Made by a program: the position numbers and the translations under genes. This document shows positions 2,948-21,828 of a stretch of 64,000 nucleotides of DNA, one piece after another. The notes under the pieces are model-generated. The model saw only the letters and a program-made list of their open reading frames with translations, did not search any database and had not been told where the DNA came from. The number at the start of each line of letters is the position of its first letter. The stretch's first letter is position 1. Origin of the DNA: an uncultured Methanoregulaceae archaeon (GTDB lineage Archaea > Halobacteriota > Methanomicrobia > Methanomicrobiales > Methanospirillaceae); assembly GCA_963705255.1 (NCBI GenBank), contig OY970061.1, forward strand, positions 2,464,001-2,528,000. The letters are read 5' to 3'.

Positions 2948-3400
2948 ATGTCACCGGAAGCCCGGAACCCTCAAAAATCCTTCTTTTTTTTCTATACATC
3001 GTTGATTTCATGTGTAATTCTCATCCTCTGGCTGCTTCCTGATCTTGTAATAATAATGCATGGAGGAGAAGGGGGACCTGGACTGTGGGGTCTTTTTACT
3101 ATTATCGCTTTACCGGCTACCATCATCGCCCCGCTTGTTTATGGCTGGTATATGAAGGATATGAAAGGTGCAGTACTCATCGGAGTATTACCGTTCCTGC
3201 TGACGATGATGGTTGTGAGGATATGGTCCGGTTCCGGGAACGATAGTTACCTGATAAGAACCGTTCTCTGGATCGGTTCTCTATGTGTCATCGGGGGGTT
3301 GGAAGGTTTTTTTGCTGCAAAGAAAACTGCAGGATCTTTCCTGGTCGCACTGCTTCTTGCAGGAATATGGGCGGGAATATTTTTCAGCGGAATACGGTGA
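2948..3400 (+). CDS. Hypothetical multi-pass membrane protein
   Basis: 150-aa ORF with about 5 hydrophobic segments. Confidence 0.7.
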   Translation: MSPEARNPQKSFFFFYTSLISCVILILWLLPDLVIIMHGGEGGPGLWGLFTIIALPATIIAPLVYGWYMKDMKGAVLIGVLPFLLTMMVVRIWSGSGNDSYLIRTVLWIGSLCVIGGLEGFFAAKKTAGSFLVALLLAGIWAGIFFSGIR

Positions 3401-3547
3401 GTTTTTTCCAAGTCGTCCTCTTTTATTGGTTCATCGGGTTCCAGGTTCCTGCTTTCATAACCAGTGTTGTCAAAACACTATGAACGAGGACGATTTATTT
3501 TATTCTCCCCGTTGGATTATCGCGTTCAGTAGAGGGTTGCGCTAGAA

Positions 3548-3568
3548 TCGTTATATACCGGGTAACGA
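3548..3568 (+). promoter_or_regulatory. TATA box (TTATATA 3551-3557) within inverted repeat TCGTTA-N9-TAACGA
   Basis: Read directly from the sequence; precedes a structured region and the 3910/4167 gene pair. Confidence 0.4.
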
Positions 3569-3909
3569 AATCCCCATTCGTGGACAGCCGGGGGTTGTCC
3601 CGAAAAGAAATGATGGGTTCACCAGGCGACGAACTTCGTTGAACCCGGTCCGCCCGCAGGCATGTGATCATTATCGTACATTCTTATGAGGATTTTCCCG
3701 TGCCCGGGTTGACAGCAAGGGAAGTGATAGCATAGACTCCACATACGGAAAGCAGAACAAAATGGCGGTATCCGGCAGGATACCGTCCTGGTTAACGAAG
3801 GAGAGCGGCCACTTACACCTTACCGGGGATGTACTCCGGGGGCAGGGATTCCCGGCAGGGGTATCCGGTCAGCCTGCAGGAAAAAACCGGAAGCGGAGGC
3901 GGGCACAGG

Positions 3910-4179
3910 ATGCCGAAGAGTAAATCCGTGACTGAAGGCGGTATTCCGCTCTATCTCCTGCCTCAGGCAATCGCACGGCAGATCACCAGGATCGGCAACT
4001 CAGTGTACCGCATCAGCGTGAAACGGACGCACTGGCATTATTACAACATATCCGTCAGGACAAAATCCCTGCCAAAGGAGCTTGCCCCGGCACGGGTTAT
4101 CCAACGTGCTTCCCCGCAGGAGAGGGAACCGGACAATCATTATCCTGTCATCCAGGAGGATAAACGGTGTACGGTATGA
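3910..4179 (+). CDS. Hypothetical basic small protein
   Basis: MPKSKSVTEGG... 89 aa; its stop overlaps the next gene. Confidence 0.6.
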   Translation: MPKSKSVTEGGIPLYLLPQAIARQITRIGNSVYRISVKRTHWHYYNISVRTKSLPKELAPARVIQRASPQEREPDNHYPVIQEDKRCTV

Positions 4180-4565
4180 GCCGGGGACCACACCCGGGAA
4201 GGACGCTCGCCGTTGCCATCCCGATCGCAGAAATGCGGGGGACTGTCCATATCGTCCGGCAGGCCCGCGGGAGCCTGTATGATTTCGTGATCTCGACTGC
4301 GGTCCCGGTCGCGTTTGTCCGCGTGAAGTATACGGACTGGATTCTCATGACGCTCCCGGAGGCAGAAGCATACTACCGTGATGTGATCAATGGCCTCCGT
4401 GCCATTGCATCAACAGAGAATGTTTCGCGTGAACTCTGGCTGCGTTCCCGGCATGGGACCTGGCGGTTCTTCCGGGTTGGCGAGAACGGTCCCGTTGAGC
4501 TCTCACGGAACGGCATGGTATTCAATACACCCGGTAAGGAAAAAGTCAAATCTCGTCAGGTATAG
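4167..4565 (+). CDS. Hypothetical protein resembling Hjc/YraN-type PD-(D/E)XK fold with altered catalytic motif
   Basis: AGGAGGA RBS at 4154-4160. The pattern IAEMRG.V..VR.....YDFVI......FVRVK parallels the Hjc-like G..V.R...D.I....EVK. Confidence 0.55.
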   Translation: MYGMSRGPHPGRTLAVAIPIAEMRGTVHIVRQARGSLYDFVISTAVPVAFVRVKYTDWILMTLPEAEAYYRDVINGLRAIASTENVSRELWLRSRHGTWRFFRVGENGPVELSRNGMVFNTPGKEKVKSRQV

Positions 4566-5083
4566 GGAAGTGAGGAAGAAGGGATCTCCCCTCTTTTACC
4601 TCTCTTCTGATGGGGGGGATCCTGATCCTCTTTTGGGGGCACCTCCCAAATCTCCCCTATACGGGCTCCGATTGGCCATTTTTCCGGATCCAGAGGAGGT
4701 ATTTCGTCAAAATGAGACATTATTTCGCTAAGATTTGCTCATTTTCACGTCAGTAATCCAGAGACGCTATTTGGGTGTATTTGGAAGGCGAAAAACAGCT
4801 TGGATCGGCCTTCAGGCCAGGAGCGCCGGGAGGATGGTTAATGGGGCTTTTCAATTACGATCCCATTTTTGCGAAACCCTCCGGCAGATTTCCTGCCACG
4901 GATTATCTCCAAATGCCAGCAAAACCCTCCGTTTTGCCCTCTGAAAATTTATTCAGCCAAGCCCATCTGCTCATAAAACCCATACTGATATGTCCAAAGG
5001 AGTTCTGCAGAACCCCGTGGACGAGAAGAATGACGAAGTCATTCTTCACTGTCAAAGGGGCCCTGGAGACACCAAAAGAAAAC

Positions 5084-5220
5084 GAGGTTCGGTGAACCTT
5101 CGAGAGGTCGAAGAAATGTTTCACATTTCTTCTCCTCTTCCTGGTTCTGATGAACCAGTCAGAGGTCGAAGATTTGATCTAAATCTTCTCCTCTTCGAGG
5201 TTCGAATCGAACCTCTCAGA
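5084..5220. repeat. Degenerate tandem array of two alternating hairpins (about 57-bp unit, 2.5 copies)
   Basis: GGTTC-loop-GAACC hairpins at 5084, 5141 and 5197 alternate with AGAGG-TCGAAGA-palindrome-TCTTCTC-CTCTT at 5103 and 5161. Confidence 0.85.
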
Positions 5221-5242
5221 AACAAAAGGAGGAACCAAAAAC

Positions 5243-5746
5243 ATGGCAGATTTCGTACAGAAAACAACCGTAAAATCCGCGGTTCGCATCCTCGCGAACC
5301 CGATAGCAGACGCAGCGGCGTTCAACACGATCGTCCAGTCGGTCATCACGACCAACCCGTTTGCATGCACAGCCTATGAGACCGCCGGCGTCAGCCACCA
5401 GCCGGTAGAGAAGACCAAGGAGTCCTACGTGGCGAAGATCGTGTACCAGGATTCCGACGCGAAGACCGTCGGGACCGACTCCGGCAGGTTCAGCTCCATC
5501 GCCGGGTTCAATGCCGGCGCCACGGCACTCCTCGGGAATGCAGCCCTCACCGCAGCCCACGGGGGCACCCCGGCCCGGGACACGGCACACGAGACCTACT
5601 CGGCCACCCTGAAGTGCCACGACGCGAACGGGGAGATCTACATGGTCACCTTCGGCCGGCAGAGTGTGAGCCTCACCTCGTACTCGGACGATGCGATCCG
5701 GACCAAGGTCGATACCTGGGCCGACTCGGTGGGAGCTCTCGCGTAA
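5243..5746 (+). CDS. Hypothetical protein (MADFVQ..., 167 aa, Ala/Thr-rich)
   Basis: AGGAGGA RBS at 5227-5233; strongly biased C/G-ending codons; no recognisable domain. Confidence 0.85.
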   Translation: MADFVQKTTVKSAVRILANPIADAAAFNTIVQSVITTNPFACTAYETAGVSHQPVEKTKESYVAKIVYQDSDAKTVGTDSGRFSSIAGFNAGATALLGNAALTAAHGGTPARDTAHETYSATLKCHDANGEIYMVTFGRQSVSLTSYSDDAIRTKVDTWADSVGALA

Positions 5747-5810
5747 GGTAGTAAAGAACAGTAGCGGGAAATCAGGAACGCGATCCGATCGCCCCCCTCA
5801 TGCGCCACCA

Positions 5811-6090
5811 GAGTCGAAGAGCCTGATGGCTCTTCTCCAGGCTGCCCGTCTCTTCGGGATCGGCAGCCTTCCCCCATCGGGGGGCGGGGCGCATCAGGAT
5901 GGGACTATTACGGAGATCTGGATACCTCAAAAAAATTACAGACCCGGTAATACGTCGTTATCCTTATGTGGGGGATGCCCACGCGGCGGGGAGGCAGTCG
6001 TCGCGTCAGCGAGGATTGACTGGAGAAGAATCCTTAAGGATTCTTCGACTGCGGATTTACGAGTCGAAGAGCCTGATGACTCTTCTCCAG
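5811..6090. repeat. 30-bp direct repeat pair GAGTCGAAGAGCCTGATGRCTCTTCTCCAG (5811-5840, 6061-6090) plus an inverted copy of the core at 6023-6048
   Basis: 29/30 identity, 250 bp apart. Each copy is followed by a hairpin with a C-TTC-G loop. Confidence 0.85.
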
Positions 6091-6185
6091 CCCGATACTT
6101 CGTATCGGTCTCCCCCAAGAGCGTCAAATTTCTTCCGGGGCAACCGGAGGAAATCCCTCTTCCCGCTCAAAAAGAGGCACACATC

Positions 6186-6371
6186 ATGGAAACCGAAATT
6201 CTTGGGATATCGAACCCCGGAGGGGTGAGATTAGAGAAGACCACAAGTCTTCGAAATATCGAAAGTCGTTCAGACTTGAGACACGAGAAGACTGCAGGTC
6301 TTCGAAATATCGAAAGTCGTTCAGACTTGAGACACGAGAAGACTGCAGGTCTTCGAATGGAGGCGCGATAA
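6186..6371 (+). CDS. Possible small ORF translated through the 51-bp repeats
   Basis: GAGG upstream; in-frame 17-aa repeat (LRNIESRSDLRHEKTAG); TAATG stop/start overlap with the next gene. May be incidental. Confidence 0.3.
   Translation: METEILGISNPGGVRLEKTTSLRNIESRSDLRHEKTAGLRNIESRSDLRHEKTAGLRMEAR
6207..6357 (+). repeat. Tandem array of a two-hairpin module (49+51+51 bp)
   Basis: ATATCGA-[hairpin]-GAGA(TTA/CAC)-GAGAAGA-N7-TCTTCGAA. Copies 6256-6306 and 6307-6357 are identical; 6207-6255 has a compensatory stem (ACCCC-GGA-GGGGT vs AAGTC-GTTCA-GACTT). Confidence 0.9.
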
Positions 6372-6535
6372 TGGACACAGAGATTATCGCCATCATCCTC
6401 GGGGCCCTGCTCCCGCTCTATCCCCTGCTGTTCGCCATCTACCAGAAGACCGGCAGGTATGACGAGATCGTCGAGGAGTTCAAAAGGCTCCGGGACGAGC
6501 ACGAGCATTACCGGGAGGCGCACCATGGAAGCTGA
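6371..6535 (+). CDS. Small single-TM protein (54 aa, not in the ORF track)
   Basis: GGAGG RBS at 6359-6363; MDTEIIAIILGALLPLYPLLFAIYQK...HHGS; overlaps the next start. Confidence 0.75.
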   Translation: MDTEIIAIILGALLPLYPLLFAIYQKTGRYDEIVEEFKRLRDEHEHYREAHHGS

Positions 6536-6986
6536 GACCGTACCGGTCGCGACCGTGACCGGCCTCTACCGGGGAACATTCAGCGGCCTCGAACCGCTCA
6601 CGAAGGACACCCCCCTCACGCTCGACGAGGTCCGGACAAAGCCGATCTTCTACGAGCTGGAACTGCACCCGGAGCAGGAGAAGGAGAACCTGATCATCGA
6701 CGTGATCTACGACAACATGTCGCCGCTGCGGCTGCAGGACCTGATGCGGGGGACGGACCTCCCGCGGGGCGTCCGCTTCTGGACGGACTGGTTCGAGGTC
6801 CCGCCCTACCGGGAGATGCACGATGTGGACGGCCGCAGGGTCTACCCCCGCTCGCCGGGGATCCACACGGTCCTGATCCGGACCGCGAAGCGGAAACTGG
6901 GAAATGTCCGGGATTTCAGCCCGGCAAACGGCGGCTCCACGAGCCCGGTATTTGAGTTGTCGATAGTCGCCAGACTTGAGACATGA
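6525..6986 (+). CDS. Hypothetical protein (MEAETVPV..., 153 aa)
   Basis: GGAGG RBS at 6514-6518; biased codons; the stop TGA lies inside a hairpin repeat. Confidence 0.8.
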   Translation: MEAETVPVATVTGLYRGTFSGLEPLTKDTPLTLDEVRTKPIFYELELHPEQEKENLIIDVIYDNMSPLRLQDLMRGTDLPRGVRFWTDWFEVPPYREMHDVDGRRVYPRSPGIHTVLIRTAKRKLGNVRDFSPANGGSTSPVFELSIVARLET

Positions 6987-7011
6987 GAAGAATGCATCAG
7001 CATTCTTCGAA
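6958..7011 (+). repeat. Fourth copy of the two-hairpin module
   Basis: TGTCGA-TAGTC-GCCA-GACTT-GAGACAT-GAGAAGA-ATGCATCAGCAT-TCTTCGAA. Confidence 0.85.
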
Positions 7012-7201
7012 TTTGCCATCGCGGCGGACGTGAAGTAAGAACACGGTGCAGGCCCGGGCCGCCGCGTGCGGTACCGGGCGCCTGCCCTCAGTGCAGGGTC
7101 TTCGGAAGTTGAATAAACAGCGATACCGGAAAAATTCCCGTTACAAAAGAATTATCGCCCCTCGGCAGCACAGTACACTACCATATCACGGATGTGCTCT
7201 C

Positions 7202-7362
7202 ATGCTCGTCAAGTTTGAAATTTATTCTGATGGCAAATACTGGTGCGGGCGGGGCATCGGTGTCGATATCTTCACCCAGGGGAAGATTCTCGATGAGCTG
7301 AGCTGATGGCAAATATCCGTGAAGCCATTGACCCGGGGTTGCGGGGAGATGAAGATACCTGA
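7202..7362 (+). pseudogene. HicB-family (UPF0150) antitoxin pseudogene
   Basis: MLVKFEIYSDGKYWCGRGIGVDIFTQGKILDEL, then a 5-bp duplication AGCTG (7296-7305), then MANIREAID in a shifted frame. Confidence 0.7.
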
Positions 7363-7584
7363 ACATCACCTGAGAGACCGGAACCGTGACATTCCCGGGG
7401 AAACAGGATTGCCCCCTCCCAATAATTTCCGAGGCTTTACATAAAGTGAAGTATATATCAACTCCCTTCACACATACTCGCGATGGGAAATAGCCGGCGT
7501 GCCCTTCCGCTTTTGCCCCCGGGTAAACGACCGGAGGAGCAGGATTCATCGCAGGTATCATTCAACTACCCACAATAGTCCGGC

Positions 7585-7944
7585 TCATCTTGGCAGCCCG
7601 GCCCGGGTCGTGGAGTCCGCGAGAAGGTGCGCCGAGTATCCAAGGAAAAAGCAGGAGGCGCTGAAGACGAGCAGGAAATGGGGCATACCAGGGTAGAGCA
7701 ACGCAGGAATCGCCGTGAGCACGAAGATCACGGCAACGGATTTCAGCGCCCGCCGGCTGTGAAAGATGCCCCGGTGCTGTGCGCTGGTCGGTGGCTCCAG
7801 GATATCGGGGAAAAGGGAGCCGGTGGCAACAGCAATAATCCCGAATACAAACAGTTCTGTTGATGTGCCGTGAAAGGAACCGATAACGTGTACGTATGCC
7901 AGAAACAGTACCACGCCGATTACGAAGTGCGCCTGCCGGTTCAT
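7585..7944 (-). CDS. Membrane-bound metal-dependent hydrolase (YdjM/DUF457-like)
   Basis: N-terminal H, PD, HRGIFHS and H-LLAD motifs. Confidence 0.8.
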   Translation of the reverse strand: MNRQAHFVIGVVLFLAYVHVIGSFHGTSTELFVFGIIAVATGSLFPDILEPPTSAQHRGIFHSRRALKSVAVIFVLTAIPALLYPGMPHFLLVFSASCFFLGYSAHLLADSTTRAGLPR

Positions 7945-8055
7945 GATCCATGTGCAGTTTACGTGGGCCGGTATTAATACCCGGGAGCGGGGCGGGTGAA
8001 AGTATTGGACTCACCGCCGGGATGAAGCTGGATTCCCGTTATCAGGGTCTTCACT

Positions 8056-8397
8056 TCACGCACCAGCAACGAGGCGGTTCATGATGAGGAGCGCCCCGAT
8101 CCAGATCCCGTACGCCCCTCCGAGGCTCGCAAAGAGACTGAAGCGGTACATCAGGAACCAGAATGCCAGCAGGAACAGGAGAGTGGGGATCGCGAACCAG
8201 AATGCCGAAATGACCAGCTGCTGGGTCGTCTCCCGCCCTGCCTCGGAGTAGGTGAAGAGGAATGCGAGGGTCGTGATGATGGGCGCTGCTGCAAGCATGC
8301 CGCCGTATCTGGGATCTGCATGCTCGGCAAGGAGGGTAACCCCGACTATGACGCTTCCGCCGACAACAAATTTCAGGAGCGCAGAGAGATAGTCCAT
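8056..8397 (-). CDS. Small membrane protein (DUF3147/GlpM-like)
   Basis: LKFVVGG...YGGMLAAAP; four TM helices. Confidence 0.65.
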   Translation of the reverse strand: MDYLSALLKFVVGGSVIVGVTLLAEHADPRYGGMLAAAPIITTLAFLFTYSEAGRETTQQLVISAFWFAIPTLLFLLAFWFLMYRFSLFASLGGAYGIWIGALLIMNRLVAGA

Positions 8398-8656
8398 CTC
8401 TTGGATCATTTCCCCGTGAGGGTTAAATAGCCGGTCATTCAGAACGGCTGCCCGGGCAGTTCTACGTCAGTTATTTCCGCAGAGCGGCCCGGAGCACCGG
8501 GCAGATCCCGTACCGGAACCCGGGTCGGATAGGACCGCCGGGTCGTTCGCTGTGATGGACCGGGCCACCTTACTGGAACCGGCTTTGCCGACAGCAGCGC
8601 CCCATGGGCCTGGCCCGCGTCCAGTTTCCGGAAAAGCCCTTCCTTTCCTGCAGATC

Positions 8657-9699: not shown

Positions 9700-10539
9700 A
9701 TGGTGAAAGTCGGAGTCCATGTCTCGATTGCCGGGTCGCTCGACCTCGCGGTAGACCGGGCACAGGATGCAGGGTGCGACGTCTTCCAGATGTTCTCCCG
9801 CAACCCGCGGGGGTGGGGGTACCAGCCGCTTGCCGACGAGGTATGCGATGAGTTCAGGACAAAGATCCGGACGACCGGCATCGTCCCGGTCGACCATATG
9901 CCCTACCTCCCCAACCTTGCATCCCCCAAGGAGGACATCTGGGAAAAATCGGTGGCCGCCCTCACCGCTGAGCTCGGCCGTTGCGGCAGGCTGGGCATCC
10001 CCTACCTGGTGACACACCTCGGCCACCACCTGGGGGACGGTATGACCGGGGGGAGGGCGCGGGTTATCAGGGCTATCAATACCGCTCTGGGGGTATCGAA
10101 TGATGATGTCATGCTCCTCCTCGAGAATACTCCCGGCGAGAAGAACAGCGTGGGCAGCAGTTTCGAACACATCCGCGGGATCATGGATGGCATTCAAAAA
10201 AAAGGCAGGCTCGGGATATGTTTCGATACCTGTCACGCGTTCGGGGCGGGGTACGAGCTCAGGACAGAAGAGGGGCTCCGGGAGACGCTTGCCCGGTTCG
10301 ACGAACAGGTGGGACTGAAAAATCTCCGGGTTGTCCACCTCAATGACAGCAAGGGCGACCGCGGGAGCGGGCTCGACCGTCACGAACACATCGGCATGGG
10401 GTTCATCGGTGAGGACGGGTTCCGGCGCATCCTGCATAACCCGGTCTTTTCTTCGCTCCCGCTGGTCTGCGAGACTCCCGTGGACGAGCGGCGGGACGAC
10501 CGCGGCAACATTGCGAAGGTCCGGGAACTCGCGCAGTAA
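9700..10539 (+). CDS. nfo: Endonuclease IV
   Basis: GVHVSIAG, HMPYLPNLAS, LLENT, CFDTCH, HLNDSK and DRHEHIG motifs. Confidence 0.95.
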   Translation: MVKVGVHVSIAGSLDLAVDRAQDAGCDVFQMFSRNPRGWGYQPLADEVCDEFRTKIRTTGIVPVDHMPYLPNLASPKEDIWEKSVAALTAELGRCGRLGIPYLVTHLGHHLGDGMTGGRARVIRAINTALGVSNDDVMLLLENTPGEKNSVGSSFEHIRGIMDGIQKKGRLGICFDTCHAFGAGYELRTEEGLRETLARFDEQVGLKNLRVVHLNDSKGDRGSGLDRHEHIGMGFIGEDGFRRILHNPVFSSLPLVCETPVDERRDDRGNIAKVRELAQ

Positions 10540-10542
10540 CGG

Positions 10543-10746
10543 TCAGTACCTGCGGAGCGTTTCCCCGGTGTGCACGTCCGCAGCCTGCTCATAGTATTCC
10601 GGGAGCAGTGCCCGCTCCTCGACGACGCCGACCGCCTCTTCGATCTTCCTGGTAAGGTCGATGCAGTCTTCCCCGTGGCCTCCCCTGACAGCAACCCGGA
10701 CCCTTCCTTCCCGGTCAATCGTGATATCCAGTTCTTTCATATCCAT
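10543..10746 (-). CDS. DUF2997-family small protein
   Basis: ELDITIDREGRVRVAVRGGHGEDCIDLTRKIEEAVG....PEYY; last gene of the operon. Confidence 0.8.
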   Translation of the reverse strand: MDMKELDITIDREGRVRVAVRGGHGEDCIDLTRKIEEAVGVVEERALLPEYYEQAADVHTGETLRRY

Positions 10747-10765
10747 GAATTCTTCTCCTGTTCCT

Positions 10766-12400
10766 TCATGTCAGCCGGTACACCGGCTCATTCGTCTTTA
10801 CCATCGTTCCCGTCATGAGGTCCCGTGCGGTGACGCAGAGGTTCCGGTCGGCATCGAGGGTGAACGTGCATTCAAACCGTGGCTCTCCCTTCTTCGCGGG
10901 CGGTGCCGCCTCAAGGAGCGTCAGGTCTTTCCCGTTCACCGGGACCGGTTCCCGGCTGTCACCCGGTTCAGGAGCGGGCCCGGCAAGCCTCATTCGCCCG
11001 CCCGTATCGGAGACCAGTTCGATGCCTGCCGAATGGTCATCCGGGGACCCACTGCTCTCGCAGAGCGGGATGCCAAGGTACGCCTGCCCGTCGTACGCCG
11101 CGCTGATGACGATGCGGGCGACCTGTCCGGCGCTGGGATACCGGGTCCCGCTGCGCACGAGGAAGCGGTACCGGTGCTCCCGGCTCTCCGGGTCCCAGTA
11201 GCGGAGCGTGTAATCGTTCCGGATCCGGTCCTTGGCCCGGACGGGAGAGCGGTAGAGTGCTGCGCCGTGTGCCACGGCATCGAGCGGGCGATCGCAGTGG
11301 ACCGGAATGGACGGGAACCGGCGTTTCACTATCTCCTGCACGGGCGGCATGGCGCACCCCTCACCGCTCATGACCACGGCGACAACCGGCATCTCCTCAT
11401 GCCCGCTTGTGCGAAGGGACGAACTGATGCGCCCGAATACCCGGTCCACGGCTGCCGCCAGCCCCTGGTCATAAAGGATGCGCCGGAGATCAGCCTGCCC
11501 CATCCGGGCGCGGAAGGCAGACCCGGATACCGGGTCGGTAAGGTCAAGTTGAACCTCATCCATAACCGGAAGAAGCTCCCGTACCCGTTTTGCTTCCCGG
11601 AGAAGGTCGGGGTACAGCCGGACTGCCCGGGGGTCGGTCTCTGCCAGCCGCTGGTGCCGGAGCAGGTCACGCACTATCCAGCCGTCGACAGCAGCACACC
11701 CGGCAGGCTCCCCGGAATATGCGAGGGTGCGCACGCCCCCATGTTCCACCCCGGTACCCTCGTGAGCGGGGGTGACGGCTGCACCTGCAAGGTCCGTCCC
11801 GTCCATCCGGACCACCATGACGACCTCCCCGTCGTCTGCGGATACCCCGTACGCGGTGATCGCAGCCTGGTATTCGCCGACAAATGAGCATGAGCCGAAT
11901 CCTGCCATCCGGGCGACCCGGCCAAGCCACTCCGGATAATCCACAGGAGCATCGGGAGGAAGGGAAAAAACAATTCCGGTTTCCCCATCCCGGTCCCTGG
12001 CAGCATGCGCACCCAACAGGACCCGGGAGAGAAAATCGGTTGCGGCTTCGCTATACCCGGTCCTGCGGACCCCTCCCGCCGGGATACGGACCGTGCTCTT
12101 CTCGCACAGGTATTTCCTCATCCACCGGGCCGTGGCAGGATGATTTTCGCACCGCTGCCGGACGACTTCTTCTCCGGCAAGGACCTGCCCGTCATCCTTG
12201 TAGTGGACCAGCGACGGCACATAAAAGAGCCCCTCAACACCCCTCCCTGCAGGAAATTCTGTGGACAGACCATTGAACCCGAGGGTGCGGGCCTGGCCGG
12301 ATTCCGCCATGAGAGCAAGGACCGTGCTGCTCACCCCGAAGTCCACCCCGAGCCGCATTCTTTCGTGTGTCTGATTTCCTGACCGGTCCATCGTCTTCAC
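10766..12400 (-). CDS. Atypical Hsp70-family protein with degenerate nucleotide-binding motifs and no lid
   Basis: LGVDFGVSST, VPSLV, AVAHGAA and SBD-like FECTFTLDADRNLCVTARD. GTGA overlap with the upstream gene. Confidence 0.8.
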   Translation of the reverse strand: MKTMDRSGNQTHERMRLGVDFGVSSTVLALMAESGQARTLGFNGLSTEFPAGRGVEGLFYVPSLVHYKDDGQVLAGEEVVRQRCENHPATARWMRKYLCEKSTVRIPAGGVRRTGYSEAATDFLSRVLLGAHAARDRDGETGIVFSLPPDAPVDYPEWLGRVARMAGFGSCSFVGEYQAAITAYGVSADDGEVVMVVRMDGTDLAGAAVTPAHEGTGVEHGGVRTLAYSGEPAGCAAVDGWIVRDLLRHQRLAETDPRAVRLYPDLLREAKRVRELLPVMDEVQLDLTDPVSGSAFRARMGQADLRRILYDQGLAAAVDRVFGRISSSLRTSGHEEMPVVAVVMSGEGCAMPPVQEIVKRRFPSIPVHCDRPLDAVAHGAALYRSPVRAKDRIRNDYTLRYWDPESREHRYRFLVRSGTRYPSAGQVARIVISAAYDGQAYLGIPLCESSGSPDDHSAGIELVSDTGGRMRLAGPAPEPGDSREPVPVNGKDLTLLEAAPPAKKGEPRFECTFTLDADRNLCVTARDLMTGTMVKTNEPVYRLT

Positions 12401-15205
12401 CCGCAGATCTGGATATCGTACGCCCCGGGGACCTGCCGGCAGTCGCAGAGTTCGATCTCGGACCGGAAGCGGTACCAGAGCATCCGGTCAAGGAACATCC
12501 AGGAGCCTGCATCGCTCTTTCGTCCGGCCGCCGCTGCCTGTTGCCGGACCGCCGGGATATCCTCAAGAGTCGTCTCGGACAGGGGCCTTGTCCAGGGAAG
12601 CGTCCAGGACCGTACCATCCCGTCAAGCCCGCCGGTTGTCAGCTCCGTCCCGCCCGCGGTCAGCACAATCCCGCTGATGGCTGCGGAATGGGCGGGGACC
12701 GTCCGGATGAGCCGGTTTTCCTGAAGGGAAATGAACGCGAGGGTTCCGGTGTCATAGCCCGCGGCGAGGACCAGCCCGCCCGGAGTAAATAAAAGCGCCG
12801 TCACTTTTCCGGGAAGGGCATTCAGTATTCCGTCAGGAGTGCCATCCGGTAGCCGGTAGAGACGGACGACCGTATCGGCACCAGCCGCAGCAAGCAGAGA
12901 GTCTGTCAGGGCTGATGGCAAGGGCGCTCACCTCGCTGCGGGAGTCCCTGACGACCGCGTACGGCACCTGCTCGTTCGTTCTCCAGAGCCCGACCGTGGT
13001 GTCATTGCTCCCGGTCGCGAACAGCCGGCCGTCCCGCGAGAGCGCCATGCAGGTGACGATACTCGCATGTCCACGGCGGGTCCTGACCTGACGGCAGTCC
13101 GTAACGCTCCACGTCCTGATCTTCCCGTCCCAACCCCCTGAAATGAGCTCGGACCCGTCTGGCATCCATGAAAGGCAGCGCAGGGTTGTGGAGAGCCTGT
13201 CTGCACCCGCCACGAGGCTGCCGCCGTCCAGGTCCCAGATGCGCAGGGTGGCATCGGTGCCCGCACAGGCAAGGTGGGTACCCCCGGGGCTGACCGCCAC
13301 TGCCCGGATCCCGGGGGTGTACATATCGACCACCCGGGCAGGGTTCAGCTCCCCGTCCGGGTAAACCCGGGCAAAACCGTCTGACATTGCCGCGATGACC
13401 GCAGGACGGTCTGGGGAAGCGGCAAGCGATACGACATCGCCGGCATGGTGTTCGAGTGTCCGCCGGATCTCTCCCGAAGGGAGATGCCAGACTTTGACGG
13501 TCCCGTCCCAGCTCGCAGTCGCAAAACTCGTACCGTCAGGAGAGATTGTACAGCAGGTGACTGCTTTTTTGTGTCCTTTGAACTCCTTCATCAAGGCGGA
13601 GGCGGGCATAGTGTATAGGCGGATGGTGCCGCTCGAATAACCGGTTGCAAGGAGGTTGCCATCCGGGGCCGGGGCACAGCAGGTGATGTGGCGGCTGTAG
13701 AACGGCACCGTAGCAACCGGCACTTTCCCGGACCAGTTCCAGCAGCGGAGGGTATGGTCGCTGCAGCCGGCCGCACACCACGGGCCAGCAGGAGAGACCG
13801 CACTGCACACGACGCTACCGCACTGCCCGGAAAATACCCTCACCTTCGTTCCGGATACCGTGTCCCACAGCGACGGTGGGGCACGATCGTACAGAACCAA
13901 GACCCGGCTGCTGTCATCACTGAAGGTGATTGACCTGACAGCATCACCGGCACCGTTCAGCACGGACAGGCAGGTGCGTGCAGGAAGGTCGAGAAGGGAT
14001 ACGGTGCCATCGGTATGGCCGGCTGCAAGCCTGATTCCGTCCGGGGAAAAGGCGAGACAGGCGATCGGGGACGGGTGGGCCGGGATCGTGCCGGCCATCT
14101 TCCCGCCATCCACGAAGAGAACGTTTACGATCCCTCGGGTATCTCCGGTGATGACCGTCAACCCGTCCCCGGAGAGAACCGCTGCCCCGGCTTCACCGCT
14201 CCCGTTACCGGGCCATGACCAGGTGCGGCGCCCTGCCTGCAGTTCGTGGCAGTGGAGTGCGCCGTCGTCGCTGCCGAAGATTATGCGGGTGTTGTCCGGT
14301 GGTATGGCAAGGAACCGGGCAGACCCGGTACCCGTGCTGATGGTTACCCGGTTTCGTGCAGTGCTGATCTGCCAGACCGAGATGATCCCGTCGCAGCTGC
14401 CGGTGGCGAGCAGCGTGCTGTCCGGGGAGAAGGCCAGGCGCACGACCCTGCTTGCCGGGCGTCCGATACTGCGGGTCAGCAGCCCTGCTGCAGGTACAGG
14501 ATAACTCCACTCACTGGGGAGGACTGCCAGAATGTCTGAAAAGACATTCCCGGCGTCCCCGGGGGGTGTCCATCCGGAAGATTTGATCGCGGCGATGGCA
14601 GTGATTGTCAGTTTCGGGGGTGCAAACGGGGCGAGCTGCCAGAGGTCCGCCCACCGTCTGTCCTGGATGAGCCCGCTCACGACGACCTCCCACTCGACAG
14701 GTGACCATCCCCCGGCAGACCTGGTGACCGGGTCCCCGACAAGTGCGGCGGCAAGAAGGTTGCACGTCCTGCTATCACGTGCGCGGCGCAGGGCATTCCT
14801 CCGGGCCGCAGGGTCTGCCCGGGCATACCCTCCAGCCAGCAGCGGGCAACCGGCAGCCGTGTCTGTCCCGGACAAGCGCTCCTTCTGCCCGGTCACAAAA
14901 GAGAAGAGTGCCTGATCGGCAGGATCGTGGGGGGTGTACCCGCGTACTATTACGAGGTTCACCAGCTCAGGAATGCCATTCCTGAGAACTTCGCGGCAGA
15001 TCAGGTCTTCCTGTTCCCGGGACACGAGAGAACCGAGGCCGTCGATGACAGCGGCGCGGAGGTCCGGCGAGTCCGTTGCGGTGAATAACGATAAAAGTTC
15101 CTTCACTGCCAGGATATCTCCCCTTTTTACTGCATTTGTATACTTCCTGGCTGCCCGGCTGCAGAGCCAGGAGTTGATGAGAGGGACGCGGCAGGGACCG
15201 TCCAT
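12397..15205 (-). CDS. Large WD40 protein (helical N-terminus plus about 15 WD repeats), split by a 1-nt insertion at about 12904
   Basis: Repeated (F/I)SPDG.LLA.GS.DGT..(V/L)W units. Removing one base joins ...ISPD to DSLLAAAGADT..., giving about 935 aa. Confidence 0.85.
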
Positions 15206-15210
15206 GGTGT

Positions 15211-16770
15211 TCAGGTGTGGACCGGGTCGAAGGTCTCGAGGGCAATCGACCGTCCTGCGTCTGCGCAGGACCGGGCCGGCCGGGAGGCGGAGACCGCCCG
15301 GCCCTCTGCGAGGTACTCACGCAGTGCGGCCACCGTCTCGCGCTGTGAGATCGAGAGCGGCACCTGCTTTTTCAGGCACCCGAGGATGTCTTCGGTAGTG
15401 ACCCGTCGCAATCCCTCGTTGAACGCGAGGTACATGGCATCGATGACGGTCTGCTCAATCTCGGCGCCAACGCACCCCTCGCCCTCTTTTGCAAGAAGGT
15501 CGAGGTCGTATTCTGCGGGGAGGCACTTGCGTTTCCGCAAATGGACCGAGAAGATCTCCCGCCGTTCCTCGACCGTGGGCAGGTCGAGGAAGAAGATCTC
15601 GTCGAACCGTCCTTTCCGCAGCAGTTCCGGGGGAAGGGCCGCGATGTTGTTTGCCGTCGCCACCACAAAACAGGGGGAGGTCTTGTCTTGCATCCAGGTC
15701 AGCAGGTGGGCAAACACGCGCTGGCTGGTGCCCGCGTCCCCGCTTCCGAACGCAAACGCCTTCTCTATCTCGTCCACCCAGAGGATGCAGGGGGCGATGG
15801 TCTCGGCAAGGGACAGGGCCCGCCGGGTGCGCTCTTCTGATTCTCCGACAAGGCTGCCGAAGAGGGCCCCCACGTCAAGCCTCAGGAGCGGGAGGTGCCA
15901 GAGGTCGGCGATCATCTTTGCGGTCAGGCTCTTCCCGGTGCCGGGAATACCGATGAGGGCGATCCCCTTGGGGGCAGGCAGGCCGTACTCCCGTGCTTCT
16001 TCCGTGAAGGCCCGTTCCCGGAGGCGGAGCCATTCCTTAAGTACCGAAAGGCCCCCGACATTCTCCGGGATCTCAGTCAGGCTGTAGAACTCCAGGGCAT
16101 CCGAACGGCTCAGGACATCTTTCTTGTCAGCTATGACCGCGTCGATGTCCCGGTCGTCGAGAGTGCCGTGCGTGACGATCGCTTTTGAGAACGAGCGGCG
16201 CGCCTGGTTGAGGGTCATGCCGAGTGCGGCCTGGATGATCTTCTCCCGCCCGCCCTTCGAGAGCGAACTTGCAATCCCGCTCGTGACAAGGAGCATGTCC
16301 AGCTCGTTCCCGAGCTCGGCAGCAGCGGGCGGCGGGAAATGGATGACCACTGCATCGTCCCGGATCTCGTCGGGTATTTTATGGACCGGCGTGATGATCA
16401 CGATGGTCCGCCGGTTGTACCGGAACTTCTGGGAGAGGTTGCGGACCCTGCGCTTCACCTGCGGGTTGTTCCAGAACTCGTGGAAGTCCTTGAGTATGAT
16501 CACCGCGTTCTCGTCGGTCTTGGTGATGTCCTCCAGTGCCGCTAGGGGGTCGCGGGACTGGGTGAGGAAATTCCTGTTGCCCGAAATGACCGCAAAGCCG
16601 TCGGCGCTGTCCCAGGTGATGCACTGCCGCGCGGGTTCCCATGTGTCGCAGACCTCCCGGATGCGCGAGACGACCCGCTCTTCCTCCGGGCTCATGACCA
16701 CCACGAGCGTGACCCGTGCCCGGAGCGAGACGTTCAGCCGCTGGGAAAAGTCCGGTTCGGGCTGCTGCAT
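15211..16770 (-). CDS. Ycf46-like AAA+ ATPase (degenerate N-terminal plus active C-terminal AAA module)
   Basis: VGGLSVLKEWL, Walker A GIPGTGKS, Walker B ILWVDEIEK and SRH ATANN...PPELLRKGRFDEIFF. Confidence 0.9.
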   Translation of the reverse strand: MQQPEPDFSQRLNVSLRARVTLVVVMSPEEERVVSRIREVCDTWEPARQCITWDSADGFAVISGNRNFLTQSRDPLAALEDITKTDENAVIILKDFHEFWNNPQVKRRVRNLSQKFRYNRRTIVIITPVHKIPDEIRDDAVVIHFPPPAAAELGNELDMLLVTSGIASSLSKGGREKIIQAALGMTLNQARRSFSKAIVTHGTLDDRDIDAVIADKKDVLSRSDALEFYSLTEIPENVGGLSVLKEWLRLRERAFTEEAREYGLPAPKGIALIGIPGTGKSLTAKMIADLWHLPLLRLDVGALFGSLVGESEERTRRALSLAETIAPCILWVDEIEKAFAFGSGDAGTSQRVFAHLLTWMQDKTSPCFVVATANNIAALPPELLRKGRFDEIFFLDLPTVEERREIFSVHLRKRKCLPAEYDLDLLAKEGEGCVGAEIEQTVIDAMYLAFNEGLRRVTTEDILGCLKKQVPLSISQRETVAALREYLAEGRAVSASRPARSCADAGRSIALETFDPVHT

Positions 16771-16771
16771 C

Positions 16772-17170
16772 CTAGTCCCATCTCCTCATGACGATCCTGA
16801 TAGTCCCGTCCGTCTCGCTGGTCTGGGAGACCAGCTCGAAACCGTCCGCCAGGGCCTGCGAAAGGACCATACTCCGCGCATATTCCTTTTGGATGGCCCC
16901 GGCCTGATCCTTCAGCTGCTGCGCTATCTTCCGTTCGCCGGCTCCGGTAACCCCCCACCAGTCCGCGACCATGTCGTAGGTCCCGTCGCCGTTCCGGACA
17001 AACCCGATGCCGTACCCCTTGGTCTGGGTGACGGCGATATCCACCGTGTGTTCCCCGTGGTGTCCCCGGATAGTAATATCGGTCTCCACTTCATACCCGA
17101 GGTTTTTCAGGCAGGCGATGAGCGCCTCCCGGTGCCGGAACAGTGTCTTTACGCGGCTGTAATGCGACAT
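16772..17170 (-). CDS. DUF1257/Ycf35-family protein
   Basis: MSHYSRVKT, L..LGY, IGF...DGTYDMVADWW and QKEYA...GF motifs. Confidence 0.85.
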   Translation of the reverse strand: MSHYSRVKTLFRHREALIACLKNLGYEVETDITIRGHHGEHTVDIAVTQTKGYGIGFVRNGDGTYDMVADWWGVTGAGERKIAQQLKDQAGAIQKEYARSMVLSQALADGFELVSQTSETDGTIRIVMRRWD

Positions 17171-17174
17171 GGTC

Positions 17175-17816
17175 TTACCCTCTCCTGCAGCGTGCTGCCA
17201 CCCGTCGGGTGACGTGCGGTCCCGGGAAGCCGGTCACCGTGATGCTGCCGTCCGGCAGAATGGTATACTCTGCCTGCCTGCAGGGAGTCCCAGGCACAGC
17301 GGTACTGGAAGCAAGGTTCCCGTTCAGCGCGATGGCGCACTGGTTGCCCGACCCCGTAAAAGGGTGGACTGATGCGCATGAAGGGATATAGGGCCCGGCT
17401 ATCAGGAGGTCGGTCATCATCAGGAGGCGGAGGTACGATGGCCGGCCATCCCGCAGGATACGGTCGTGCGTGTACCCCGTGAAGGTAACGATACTCAGTC
17501 CTTCGCGTTTCAGGCTGCGCCCAAGATCTGCAAGCGCGGCTGCCTGTGCAAACGGCTCACCACCGGAGAATGTGACACCGTCAATATCATCAAGGGCGAA
17601 GATCTGCTCTGCAAGCTCATCGACAGCAACTAGGTAGGCGGGAGAAAAAGACCATGACTGCGGGTTGAAGCACCCCCTGCACCGGATCGGGCAGCCCTGC
17701 ACCCAGACGACTGCCCGGAGGCCCGGGCCGTTCACTTCCGAGCGGGCGAGAAAACCCGCGAGGTTGAGAACGCTCTTAAGTCGGCATCCGGGATCGCTGT
17801 TTTCATGCACCATCAT
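17175..17816 (-). CDS. NrdG/activase-like radical SAM (4Fe-4S) protein
   Basis: NGPGLRAVVWVQGCPIRCRGCFNP (CxxxCxxC), GVTFSGGEPF and DLLIAGPY. Confidence 0.9.
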   Translation of the reverse strand: MMVHENSDPGCRLKSVLNLAGFLARSEVNGPGLRAVVWVQGCPIRCRGCFNPQSWSFSPAYLVAVDELAEQIFALDDIDGVTFSGGEPFAQAAALADLGRSLKREGLSIVTFTGYTHDRILRDGRPSYLRLLMMTDLLIAGPYIPSCASVHPFTGSGNQCAIALNGNLASSTAVPGTPCRQAEYTILPDGSITVTGFPGPHVTRRVAARCRRG

Positions 17817-18107
17817 TTTTCCGCCATGATGTATTGGCCGGTCAAAATGTTCCGGTGTGGGGGATCGATGTATCTTATAGTATTACCCAATCATCCCGGA
17901 ATGAAGATCACCCTCGGGGACGTGCAATATCAGCATACTTATGAGATACGATCTGACTATACAGGTTCGGTTTTCACCTTTTTATAGCCATTGTCCCCGC
18001 TGTTTGTAATTCATAAGGATTTCGCCCGGGCCGGTCCCGGGCGCGCGGCGTCCCCCTGTTCTGCCTGCCCACGCCATTATCATCCTCAAGAAATAATAGA
18101 TCAGGCA

Positions 18108-19118
18108 GTGAAAGCGACATTTGACGGCACATCAATACGCCTCGGGAAGGAAGGGCGCGCACTGTACGAGCAGAGCGGGTACGGGAGGCTGGACCCGCAG
18201 GGACTGCGGCTATCCCCGCAGGAGGCCCTCTACCTTCTCCACCGGCAGAAGATCGCATTCGAAGACTTCACGTTCGACACCCTTTTTGCCGAGTTTGCCG
18301 AAGAGCGCAATTTCCTCCGGAGTTTCCTCGTTTACCGCGACCTCCGCGAGCGGGGGTACGTGGTCCAGACCGGCCCGCACGATTTCCGCGTTTTCCGTCG
18401 CGGCGAGAAACCCGGGACGGGGGAGTCCCTCTACCTCGTCCGCGTCCTCTCGGAGCGCGACCCGATCCGATTCGAGAAGCTGATCGAGGAAGTGGTCGCT
18501 TCGAGGAACATGCGCAAGCAGTACATCCTTGCCGTCGTCGATGATGAGGACGAGCTCACCTATTACGAGATCAAGCTCCAGAAGCTGGCCGGGGCCGGTA
18601 TTCCGTCCCAGCCGCTCTCGCACCATGAGGCGATGCTGGTCGGCAAATCCGCGATGGTCCGGGTTCCCGCACACTCGGATCTCGAACAGGCTGGCTACGG
18701 GAAGCGGCTCGATGCCGAACGCCTTATGCTCTCCCCGGTGGAACTCCTCTATCTGATGGGCGAGAACGTGCTCACGCTCCGCCAGGGCAGTGAGACGATA
18801 AGCACGGCGGACCTCCTCGCGCTTGCCCGGGAGAGCGACCGGGAAGTCGTGGAGAAGCACAAGGTCTATACCGAGCTGCGGGGGCATGACTTCACCCCCA
18901 GGACCGGCTACAAGTTTGGCCACCACTTCCGGGTCTACTGCGGCAGGAATGTCCACTCGGACATGCTGGTCCATGCCGTTGAAAAGGAAGCGGTCATGCC
19001 CATGAGCGTCATCTCGCGGTCGGTGCGGATGGCGCACAGTGTCAAAAAGAAGATGTTGTTTGGGGCTGTACATACTACCGGAATCCAGTTCGTCGAATTT
19101 GCACGGATCAAACTGTGA
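18108..19118 (+). CDS. endA: tRNA splicing endonuclease (alpha2 homodimeric type)
   Basis: Duplicated domain: VYRDLRERGY and GYKFGHHFRVY...VRMAHSVKK. GTG start inferred. Confidence 0.92.
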   Translation: MKATFDGTSIRLGKEGRALYEQSGYGRLDPQGLRLSPQEALYLLHRQKIAFEDFTFDTLFAEFAEERNFLRSFLVYRDLRERGYVVQTGPHDFRVFRRGEKPGTGESLYLVRVLSERDPIRFEKLIEEVVASRNMRKQYILAVVDDEDELTYYEIKLQKLAGAGIPSQPLSHHEAMLVGKSAMVRVPAHSDLEQAGYGKRLDAERLMLSPVELLYLMGENVLTLRQGSETISTADLLALARESDREVVEKHKVYTELRGHDFTPRTGYKFGHHFRVYCGRNVHSDMLVHAVEKEAVMPMSVISRSVRMAHSVKKKMLFGAVHTTGIQFVEFARIKL

Positions 19119-19127
19119 GCGCTCACC

Positions 19128-20384
19128 ATGCAGGAACCTCAGATCAACCCCTGGTCAAGCACCCCGTCCCTCGATATCGGGAAGGCCTTTGCGGATTTTG
19201 GTATCGAGCCCATCGCCCCGGTGATCTCCGATCTTCCTGACATCCCCTATTTCATGCGGCGGGGGATCGTGGTCGGCCACCGGGATTACCTCCCCATCGT
19301 GCAGGCAATCCGCAACCGCATGCCGTTCCATATCCTCACCGGCTTCATGCCGAGCGGCCACCCGCATCTCGGCCACCTCATGGTGATGAAGGAAGTGGTC
19401 TGGCACGTACAGCAGGGCGGCAACGGCTACGTAACCATCGCCGACCGCGAGGCACACGCGGTCCGGGAGATGCCGTGGGAGAAGTGCCGGGAGTACGGGA
19501 AAGAGTACCTCGCCTGCCTGTTTGCTCTCGGATTCGAGGGGCAGACCTATTTCCAGAGCAGGAACGACCGGCTCAAGGACCTTGCGTTCGAGGCTGCCAC
19601 TAAGGTAAATTTCTCGGAACTCGCCGCAATTTATGGTTTTTCTCCAGAGACGGACCTTGCCCATGCAGACAGCGTCATCACGCAGGTCGCTGATATCCTC
19701 TATCCCCAGATCGACCGGGAACCGGCACCGACCGTTGTGCCCGTGGGCGTGGACCAGGACCCGCACATCCGGCTCACCCGGGGGATCGCCCACAAGATGC
19801 GGATGTTCACGGTCGAGGAGCGCGACGGCTACATCAGCGTCCGCTCGAAGAATGCGCCGGACAAGGCGCTGGATGCGGTGAAAAAAGCCTTCCCGCACGC
19901 GAAAAAATACGAGGGGCACGTGGACATCAGGGGGGCACACTGTGCGGACGTGAGCGCGAAGGTCCGGCGGATCGAGCGGGAGTGCGGAGGATATGCCTTT
20001 TACACCCCATCTTCCACATACCATATCTTCATGCCCGGCCTGACCGGTGGCAAGATGTCGAGCAGCATCCCGGAGAGTATCATCTCGTTCTACGAGCCTG
20101 AGGCAGCGGTCAGGAAGAAGGTGATGAGCGGCATCACTGGCGGGAGGATGACGCTCGAGGAGCAGAAGCGGCTCGGAGGCGAACCGGACAAGTGCTCGCT
20201 CTACCTCCTCAACCTCTTCCATATGGTGACGGACGATGCGGAACTTGCGGAAGTCAGGAGGAGATGCGTCTCGGGGGAGATCACCTGCGGGCAGTGCAAG
20301 AAGGAGACCGCGGAGCGGGTCGTGGCCTTCCTGAAAGACTTCCGGGAGAAGATGGACGCGGCAGCAGAGACGATCGAGGTATGA
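19128..20384 (+). CDS. trpS: Tryptophan--tRNA ligase
   Basis: HLGH, PVGVDQDPH and KMSSS motifs. Confidence 0.97.
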   Translation: MQEPQINPWSSTPSLDIGKAFADFGIEPIAPVISDLPDIPYFMRRGIVVGHRDYLPIVQAIRNRMPFHILTGFMPSGHPHLGHLMVMKEVVWHVQQGGNGYVTIADREAHAVREMPWEKCREYGKEYLACLFALGFEGQTYFQSRNDRLKDLAFEAATKVNFSELAAIYGFSPETDLAHADSVITQVADILYPQIDREPAPTVVPVGVDQDPHIRLTRGIAHKMRMFTVEERDGYISVRSKNAPDKALDAVKKAFPHAKKYEGHVDIRGAHCADVSAKVRRIERECGGYAFYTPSSTYHIFMPGLTGGKMSSSIPESIISFYEPEAAVRKKVMSGITGGRMTLEEQKRLGGEPDKCSLYLLNLFHMVTDDAELAEVRRRCVSGEITCGQCKKETAERVVAFLKDFREKMDAAAETIEV

Positions 20385-20385
20385 G

Positions 20386-21828
20386 ATGGCAGAACTGACG
20401 CAGAACGAGAAACGGCTGCTGGAGAAGTTGGCTGAGAAAAATAAAGCGGATGTTCAACAACTTGCGGATGAATTGGATGCGACTCCGGAAGTTGTCGTAC
20501 AGTGGGGGCTGCTCGGAAAGGACCATGGTCTGGCAGATGTCTTACGAGGCGTTAAAAAAACTCTGGAATATACTGAAGAAGGAAGGAACTATTTAGAAAA
20601 TGGCCTTCCCGAGACGCAGATTCTGACTGCAATAGGTAATTGCACCACTCTCTCCGCATTACAGAAACACCCGGCTTTCAAGATTGGTTTCGGGCAGCTC
20701 CGGAAAAAAGGCCTTATTACCGTGACCGAAGGCAATGTCACTAAAGTTTCAGGTGCTTCGACTGAAAAAGATGAATCTGCACTAAAAAACCGAGATAACA
20801 ATAACCCTCTTATAAAGGATCTTATAAAACGAGGCCTTTTGCAGGAAACTGAAAAGGTTCAGTATACTCTGTCTATCACTGAAGCAGGGACCTTAAAAGT
20901 CAAACAAGGGCTCGACCTCCGCGAAGAGACCGGCACCCTCACCCGCGAGCAGATCATATCGGGTGAGTGGAAGAACGCGAAATTCCGCAAATATGACGTG
21001 ACCAAACTCCCGAGAAAGGCGTATCCCGGCAAACTCCACCCCTACCAGCGGATCATTGCCGAGATGCGGGAGATCCTTCTCGACATGGGATTCACCGAAC
21101 TCTACGGCAGCATCGTCCAGCAGTCTTACTGGAACTTCGACGCCCTGTTCCAGCCGCAGGACCACCCAGCCCGCGAGATGCAGGACACCTTCTACCTCGG
21201 CGAGACTTTGCCGCTGCCAGCAGGGTACGAGCGGGTCAAGGCCATGCACGAGTCGGGCGGGGAGACGTCCTCAACCGGCTGGGGAGGTACTTGGAAGGAG
21301 GCGAAGGCCGAGCAGTGCGTGCTGCGGACGCACACGACCAGCCTCTCCATCCAGCACCTTGCAGAGAACCCCAATCCCCCGGTCAAGGCCTTCTGCATCG
21401 GCAGGGTCTACCGGCGCGAGACGATCGACACCACCCACCTTGCCGAGTTCGAGCAGCTCGAGGGGATCGTGATGGACGAGGGTGTCCATTTCGGGAACCT
21501 TCTCGGGATCCTCCGAGAGTTCTACCACCGCATGGGATTCGAGGGCGTGCGGTTCAAGCCATCCTATTACCCATATACCGAACCGAGCCTCGACGCTGAA
21601 GTCTATGTCGACGGCATCGGCTGGATTGAAATGGGGGGAGCGGGCGTCTTCCGCGAGGAGGTCACCGCGCCGTTCGGCATCCAGTACCCTGTCCTCGCGT
21701 GGGGGCTCGGGGTGAGCCGGATCGCCATGCTCCGCCTCGGCCTCAAGGACCTGCGTCACCTCCACCGCAGCGATGTCGCGTTCCTCCGGGAGACCCCGGC
21801 CTACCGGCGGCCATTGGGAGGCGCCTGA
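20386..21828 (+). CDS. pheS: Phenylalanine--tRNA ligase alpha subunit
   Basis: [29 protein letters not shown] and AWGLG. Confidence 0.97.

Follow-up and report, generated by a model that had tools for sequence, protein, structure and literature searches.

Six adjacent genes in an uncultured Methanoregulaceae archaeon are co-inherited as a single unit, and all six are under purifying selection. They lie at positions 10,543–17,816 of the 64,000-nucleotide (nt) stretch of DNA analysed here (the window; positions 2,464,001 to 2,528,000 of contig OY970061.1, assembly GCA_963705255.1) and encode, in order, a radical S-adenosylmethionine (SAM) enzyme (rSAM), a DUF1257 (Ycf35-type) protein, a Ycf46-like AAA+ ATPase, a WD40 protein, an Hsp70-like protein and a DUF2997 protein. 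On the data, they make up a single module that is dispensable and has long been retained. Our reading, which we hold tentatively, is that the six genes form one accessory protein-remodelling machine, probably bacterial in origin, that has been vertically inherited and often lost in the Methanoregulaceae.

Within the genus Methanoregula, DUF1257 is present in 10 of 25 genomes, and all nine holders other than the window's own carry the identical gene order beside endA, with nfo on the opposite side wherever the retrieved sequence includes it; this repetition of order and site is far beyond chance. All six genes are present in eight of these nine congener loci, and split matches occur in two low-completeness congener genomes. 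The ninth locus (L016, genome G014; 7870–8415) keeps the other four genes, but its WD40 gene is gone, as are the first two thirds of its Hsp70-like gene. The empty site is clean, with nfo directly adjoining endA in five of five congeners lacking DUF1257. More widely, DUF1257 occurs in 13 of 29 Methanoregulaceae genomes (six genera), in 0 of 16 genomes from other genera of the order and in 14 of 401 sampled genomes of the phylum, 13 of these 14 being Methanoregulaceae. Gene order is kept in all nine further Methanoregulaceae loci, of which six are complete, two are cut at contig ends and one has no DUF2997 match at E 1e-4; five of them, from other genera (L131–L135), lie at the endA site, and four (L132–L135) are also beside nfo. 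Further, in a tree of two flanking genes (14 rows; L014 was left out, as nfo is not on its contig piece), the cluster-less genome G001 falls among holders (support 99/98), which indicates a loss. The set is old in the Methanoregulaceae and has often been lost. In some congeners DUF2997 and nfo are separated by an extra, opposite-strand gene of 340 amino acids (aa) (L011, 16519–17541; L012, 2653–3675), whose product shows, by eye, a Cys-rich motif at the N terminus, a hydrophobic stretch and a linker rich in Thr and Pro.

The preliminary description of this DNA, made from its letters and open reading frames (ORFs), had tied its proposal to recurrence of the six genes elsewhere, and they do recur. 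From an AAA family with 4,944 cluster representatives at E 1e-30 or better, we gathered 80 genome loci using an AAA profile of 51 relatives, and assigned families by local jackhmmer with the window proteins. DUF1257 is found in 25 of the 80, DUF2997 in 23, WD40 in 17, the Hsp70-like family in 13 and rSAM in 11. All six families occur together in seven loci from five phyla, in shuffled gene orders: L030 (Methanoregula), L031, L033 and L034 (Chloroflexota), L036 (Planctomycetota), L043 (Actinomadura) and L055 (Nanoarchaeia); an eighth locus, L032, shows five before it is cut off by the contig edge. The AAA proteins of the six-family loci are the closest to that of the window (57–61% identity). 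In addition to the window, rSAM accompanies AAA, DUF1257 and DUF2997 in ten other genome loci, and in 7 of the 11 rSAM loci the gene immediately upstream of rSAM is that of DUF2997.

The WD40/Hsp70 slot, singled out in the preliminary description as possibly variable, proved so in part: HEAT proteins occupy the WD40 position in L046 and L089, and the pairing itself is constant, the Hsp70-like gene always being accompanied by a WD40 or HEAT partner (13/13). Among 118 neighbouring ORFs examined in 16 loci for extra components, we found a GrpE-like gene close to the Hsp70-like one in 6 of 13 loci (Pfam recognised three of them, and BLASTP against these three identified the rest), proteins with an FGE-sulfatase domain in L055 and L098, HsdM genes abutting L043 and L055, and a toxin–antitoxin pair inside L037. 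In L037, an Anaerolineales version, AAA and WD40 are separated by two inserted genes, for an MqsA-like antitoxin and a DUF4258 protein (7183–7726). The Actinomadura locus L042 has five WD40 ORF matches after AAA, two of them overlapping (11528–21094), with the Hsp70-like gene not within range.

Parts of the module also lie on viral contigs. Among the 80 best viral-contig relatives of rSAM, 11 have DUF1257 alongside; 8 of these 11 also have an AAA match, which exceeds 450 bits in five. One 48-kb viral contig (L179, 5624–9845) carries a compact row of DUF1257, rSAM, Hsp70-like, AAA and DUF2997 genes and no WD40 gene. DUF1257 by itself has matches in 14 phage records and 10 plasmid records; on a Treponema plasmid (L140, 6001–6408) it sits inside a contractile-tail-like row (sheath, baseplate) and has no AAA neighbour.

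The six genes evolve at different rates. Between the closest pair of genomes, which are 96% identical in the flanking trpS-like gene, identities fall from 94% for AAA and 90% for DUF1257 to 81% for DUF2997, 77% for rSAM, 64% for the Hsp70-like protein and 60% for WD40. Across six genome pairs, approximate dN/dS ratios are 0.03–0.10 for AAA, 0.05–0.24 for DUF1257, 0.07–0.22 for DUF2997, 0.18–0.27 for rSAM, 0.24–0.36 for WD40 and 0.17–0.32 for the Hsp70-like gene, one Hsp70-like value of 0.53 having been excluded as an alignment artefact. The WD40 and Hsp70-like genes, those of the capture arm proposed below, thus evolve several times faster than the AAA+ motor. We also considered a swap of the Hsp70-like cassette between close genomes and rejected it: the dN of 1.145 between L012 and L015 is an alignment artefact, because the two proteins are 64% identical.

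The ATPase had been described as Ycf46, which holds in part. It is Ycf46-like, colinear over its full length, and is a classical AAA domain with its lid, but it is not a member of the cyanobacterial Ycf46 clade: the AAA tree places the window protein in a clade of 24 rows (support 99), apart from a 29-row cyanobacterial clade (support 100). Full-length relatives share 40–54% identity in matches running from about residue 7 to about residue 500, and so take in the family-specific N-domain (residues ~1–235), for which an atlas search returned unnamed clusters only. Walker A residues G274, G277, G279 and K280 are invariant among relatives, and Walker B residues D333 and E334 and the arginine fingers R385 and R388 nearly so; the catalytic motifs are intact. 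Nine Methanoregula rows (support 100) nest inside an otherwise bacterial clade of 20 rows (support 95), which is consistent with a probable bacterial origin of the set.

Both small proteins score well above their Pfam gathering cutoffs (DUF1257, 79.8 bits against 22.2; DUF2997, 59.3 bits against 24.1). S2, H3, G56 and Y97 of DUF1257 are invariant in 28 sequences, and G14, G25 and C28 of DUF2997 in 21. An AF2 model of DUF1257 (mean pLDDT 80.4) has an alpha+beta fold with no clear relative in a fold search (best Z 6.5, to KA1 and AMPK domains; Foldseek E ≥ 0.13). Comparison of DUF1257 with solved structures gave no match, DUF2997 likewise has no clear structural relative, and for DUF1257 a word-indexed protein search gave close Methanoregula-type relatives only. 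The DUF2997 profile found no match among longer proteins, and by eye DUF2997 residues do not differ between rSAM-positive and rSAM-negative loci. A complex prediction for DUF1257, DUF2997, a 4Fe-4S cluster and rSAM (score 0.00, mark 0.32) speaks neither for nor against their association.

The rSAM residues G30, P31, G32 and R34, C42, C46 and C49, and G85, G86, E87 and P88 are invariant in 11 of 11 sequences. The best solved match of the family profile is the pyruvate formate-lyase activating enzyme (PFL-AE; 8.9e-22), to which the alignment includes the GPGxR and CxxxCxxC motifs; QueE reaches just 5e-4. No glycyl-radical enzyme is encoded in or near the cluster, and PF01228 has no match in the window's genome, which is 89.5% complete. 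The anaerobic ribonucleotide reductase of this genome appears split into a 708-aa body (L115, 1114–3240) and a separate 125-aa zinc-ribbon protein (L116, 1285–1662) carrying an RVTGY glycyl-radical motif; both pieces are found in five of five congeners.

The Hsp70-like protein aligns to residues 31–403 (nucleotide-binding domain) and 415–463 (beta substrate-binding domain) of DnaK and ends there. The helical lid is missing throughout the family, with 20 of 20 aligned members ending at residue 501–502 of a 545-aa DnaK. We located the ATP-binding loops with the canonical phosphate-1, phosphate-2 and adenosine motif patterns, placed on the genome's own DnaK. The window copy reads DFGVSST, RMDGTDLAG (phosphate-2) and GEGCAMP, compared with DLGGGT for the phosphate-2 loop of the canonical DnaK in the same genome. 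Bacterial and some Methanoregulaceae copies keep DFGTSNT, DFGGGT and GGxSxIP; all five Methanoregula copies examined, the window's included, are degenerate. The protein is lid-less, and its ATP loops are degenerate in Methanoregula only; the earlier label of pseudo-Hsp70 suits the window copy, given its degenerate phosphate-binding loops. The window's cluster has no GrpE gene.

Five of the six genes read as first described; the WD40 gene is read in the window as two ORFs that overlap in different frames (12833–15205, 790 aa; 12397–12921, 174 aa). The split is caused by an extra base at 12902, which is missing from the contigs of four of four public runs from three studies (one of which may be the window's own source sample). 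Because these runs lack the base and the gene is a single frame in relatives, the break is private to the window's assembly or strain, and we interpret it as either an indel of the assembly or a private mutation. An NrdG2-like gene in the same one-contig genome is likewise read in two overlapping frames (L111, 1357–2287), probably another indel in the assembly. Residues 1–245 of the WD40 protein are predicted to form a confident all-helical domain (14 helices, pLDDT 91.2). Local profile searches found this domain, often repeated, in WD40 partners of 12 matched loci (including L030–L037, L042, L043 and L098), all with system genes, and did not find it in the remaining WD40 proteins of the locus set. 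Searched against longer proteins, its profile gave six matches, every one a WD40 protein, and a fold search returned weak helical-repeat rows only (E ≥ 0.08). Judged by this distribution, the N-domain is specific to the system.

How might the parts work together? We propose that a Ycf46-like AAA+ ring is the ATP-driven motor, and that DUF1257 and DUF2997, its near-constant companions, serve as cofactors or first substrates. The PflA/NrdG-type rSAM would abstract hydrogen from a loop in one of the system's own proteins. DUF2997 is the top candidate for this role, since in most bacterial versions the rSAM gene comes immediately after that of DUF2997. Target capture may fall to a fast-evolving arm, the helical-repeat/WD40 protein, which the lid-less Hsp70 would hold; in Methanoregula the Hsp70-like protein, having lost the canonical ATP loops, would probably act as a passive clamp. 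The preliminary description divided the labour similarly, with an AAA+ ring and two small adaptors remodelling a target caught by the propeller and Hsp70-like proteins and an activase-like rSAM modifying a component, and that division, itself a proposal, fits the anatomy and the evolutionary rates. As to function, we lean towards surveillance of foreign or damaged proteins, in conflict or stress, over core housekeeping.

Several points weigh against this reading. Pfam and PADLOC reveal no toxin-like or nuclease effector, the PADLOC matches being generic AAA ones only, and the locus has stood between housekeeping genes since the origin of the family, unlike a typical defence island. The AAA pore-loop consensus, SLVG, has no usual aromatic residue, so threading is not assured. 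The same type of rSAM is found in an aerobic actinomycete (L042, L043), a setting ill-suited to a stored glycyl radical. Within the 80-locus set, DUF1257 and DUF2997 are also found without any rSAM, and DUF1257 has no AAA neighbour in two mobile-DNA records inspected. Finally, dS values of 0.6–2.7 are near saturation, which makes the dN/dS values rough.

The module might instead be no conflict system but a chaperone system that serves an endogenous client in stress or assembly, much like the ycf46 operon that cyanobacteria induce under stress. The Synechococcus operon is induced at severe oxidative stress and requires (p)ppGpp (PMC13683863), and a chromosomal locus that is stable between housekeeping genes, an AAA protein conserved as much as the neighbouring tRNA synthetase and the lack of an effector domain would all suit such a role. 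However, the cluster is missing in 15 of 25 Methanoregula and 16 of 29 Methanoregulaceae genomes, with clean empty sites, and there is therefore no universal client; moreover, the AAA protein lies outside the cyanobacterial Ycf46 clade, the WD40 and Hsp70 proteins change far faster than a fixed client requires, and modules are carried on viral contigs. We regard this alternative as somewhat unlikely. We consider it quite improbable that the cluster is a decaying relic of a mobile-element module, now without function in Methanoregula: the dN/dS ratios are well below 1 for all six genes, most of the 18 Methanoregulaceae loci examined have the genes intact and the window's only break is absent from all four runs, even though the Hsp70 loops are degenerate in this genus only, G014 has no WD40 gene or N-terminal part of the Hsp70 gene, losses have been repeated (as with G001, nested among holders) and rSAM, DUF1257 and AAA also occur on viral contigs.

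It is also conceivable that rSAM does no more than activate the anaerobic ribonucleotide reductase and merely adjoins an unrelated AAA/Hsp70 cluster. It is the genome's top match to the NrdG model TIGR02491 (92.8 bits), and NrdD is encoded in the same genome, ~1.4 Mb from the cluster. We rejected this explanation, which we judge extremely improbable: the family scores are below both the NrdG cutoff (92 bits against 126.1) and the PFLA cutoff (64 bits against 231.75), and rSAM is found with AAA, DUF1257 and DUF2997 in the ten other genome loci and with its partners in the 11 viral ones. Because NrdD is present in five of five congeners without the cluster and an NrdG2-like gene lies elsewhere in the window's genome, rSAM, although of the PFL/NrdG-activase type, is not the activase of the reductase.

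Beyond the reading of the six genes as one accessory remodelling machine, a bolder possibility, on balance unlikely, is that they represent a new class of radical-SAM-armed protein-remodelling system common to bacteria, archaea and viruses, in which rSAM marks a Ycf35-type or DUF2997 partner and the AAA+/Hsp70 pair acts on WD40-caught targets. The radical, or a mark derived from it, might then be an oxygen- or infection-sensitive fuse, and the helical-repeat/WD40 receptor would diversify rapidly and catch targets for the AAA+/Hsp70 pair. To our knowledge, Ycf46 and Ycf35, conserved in cyanobacteria and algal plastids, are still without a mechanism; were this bolder possibility true, these long-orphaned families would gain a function. 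Here, in two domains of life and on viral contigs, relatives of Ycf46 and Ycf35 are tied to partners of three kinds: an activase-type rSAM without a glycyl-radical enzyme, a lid-less Hsp70 (with its own GrpE in bacteria) and a system-specific helical-repeat/WD40 protein. The cluster supplies concrete, testable partners for an orphan AAA+ family and a possible new coupling of radical chemistry to ATP-driven protein remodelling, and its archaeal copies offer a natural presence/absence experiment at a single site, one that may include a natural ATP-dead variant of Hsp70.

The layout of the locus is as had been described, with six minus-strand genes between nfo and endA: ORF coordinates and Pfam agree, the latter assigning the expected family to each gene, and the gaps from rSAM to DUF2997 in the ORF list are 4, 1, 5, −4 and 19 nt (Table 1). 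A TATA-like AT-rich stretch ~60 nt 5′ of the rSAM start codon is a candidate promoter element. The surroundings are housekeeping genes (endA, trpS-like, pheS/T, SAH hydrolase and POR), and a survey of window genes found no defence island around the locus. Positions 1–8400 of the window have lower GC (0.42–0.58), and among 13 ORFs scanned there Pfam matched only a TPR protein and a GlpM-like protein; this region may be foreign DNA.

Table 1. Genes and intergenic region of the six-gene locus in the window, with Pfam matches.
Feature	Position	Strand	Match or note
rSAM gene, PflA/NrdG glycyl-radical-activase type, 213 aa	17175..17816	minus	Fer4_12 2.6e-29; Radical_SAM 3e-09
DUF1257 (Ycf35-type) gene, 132 aa	16772..17170	minus	PF06868 2e-22
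Ycf46-like classical AAA+ ATPase gene, 519 aa	15211..16770	minus	PF00004 3.2e-30, plus AAA lid
WD40 gene, helical N-domain and propeller	12397..15205, as two ORFs	minus	WD40 5.7e-75, 8 matched stretches
Hsp70-like gene, 544 aa	10766..12400	minus	PF00012 4.1e-08, residues 163–382 only
DUF2997 gene, 67 aa	10543..10746	minus	PF11211 3.4e-16
nfo, flanking gene	9700..10539	plus	
endA, flanking gene, divergent	17991..19118	plus	
Intergenic region common to rSAM gene and endA	17817..17990		AT-rich TATA-like stretch, read from the letters

No functional assignment of the cluster emerged, in keeping with its first description as uncharacterised. PADLOC 2.0 gave no matching system: the AAA domain matches IetA (8e-22, residues 257–481) with no protease partner (IetS), and the remaining matches are weak or repeat-driven. 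A literature search on Ycf46, Ycf35/DUF1257 and DUF2997, with radical SAM or Hsp70, found no description of the gene set, supplements being outside that search. Related work includes a DUF2997–ycf35–fed7 gene cluster of cyanobacteria and red-lineage plastids (PMC4284462), the KaiC-linked ycf46 operon of Synechococcus (PMC13683863), a Prochlorococcus preprint (10.1101/2025.10.13.678797) and the chaperone-centred NTP-dependent conflict systems of Kaur, Burroughs, Iyer and Aravind (2020; PMC7159879).

Set beside known systems, the window's genes share three families with the cyanobacterial and plastid ycf46–ycf35–DUF2997 trio, with an AAA protein colinear over its full length, but they belong to a separate AAA clade, are joined by rSAM, a lid-less Hsp70 and WD40, and include no ferredoxin gene. 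The rSAM protein resembles PflA and NrdG in its N-terminal GPGxR, its CxxxCxxC and GGEP SAM motifs and its small size; unlike them, it has no glycyl-radical enzyme nearby and scores below the family cutoffs, and the reductase has its own activase. The closest solved relatives of the AAA domain are the D2 domains of p97 and VAT (~1e-48), and here too there are small dedicated partner genes, whereas the window protein differs from Cdc48, p97 and VAT in having a single AAA domain, an unrelated N-domain, no aromatic pore residue and partners of no known cofactor family. As in the DnaK–GrpE system, the Hsp70-like protein has an actin-like nucleotide-binding domain and a beta substrate-binding domain, and GrpE-like genes accompany it in 6 of 13 relatives; unlike that system, it lacks the helical lid, a J-protein gene was not seen, and the window copy has degenerate loops and no GrpE in its cluster. 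Finally, the cores of the NTP-dependent conflict systems in PMC7159879 are MoxR–vWA or GTPases, and the main text does not mention Ycf or DUF1257, although its supplements might list such neighbourhoods. In that same text, those systems, found in filamentous or complex bacteria, resemble the window's set in that repeat partners of WD40, HEAT or FGE type accompany an NTPase chaperone at the core, and some include an Hsp70 with GrpE or an rSAM enzyme.

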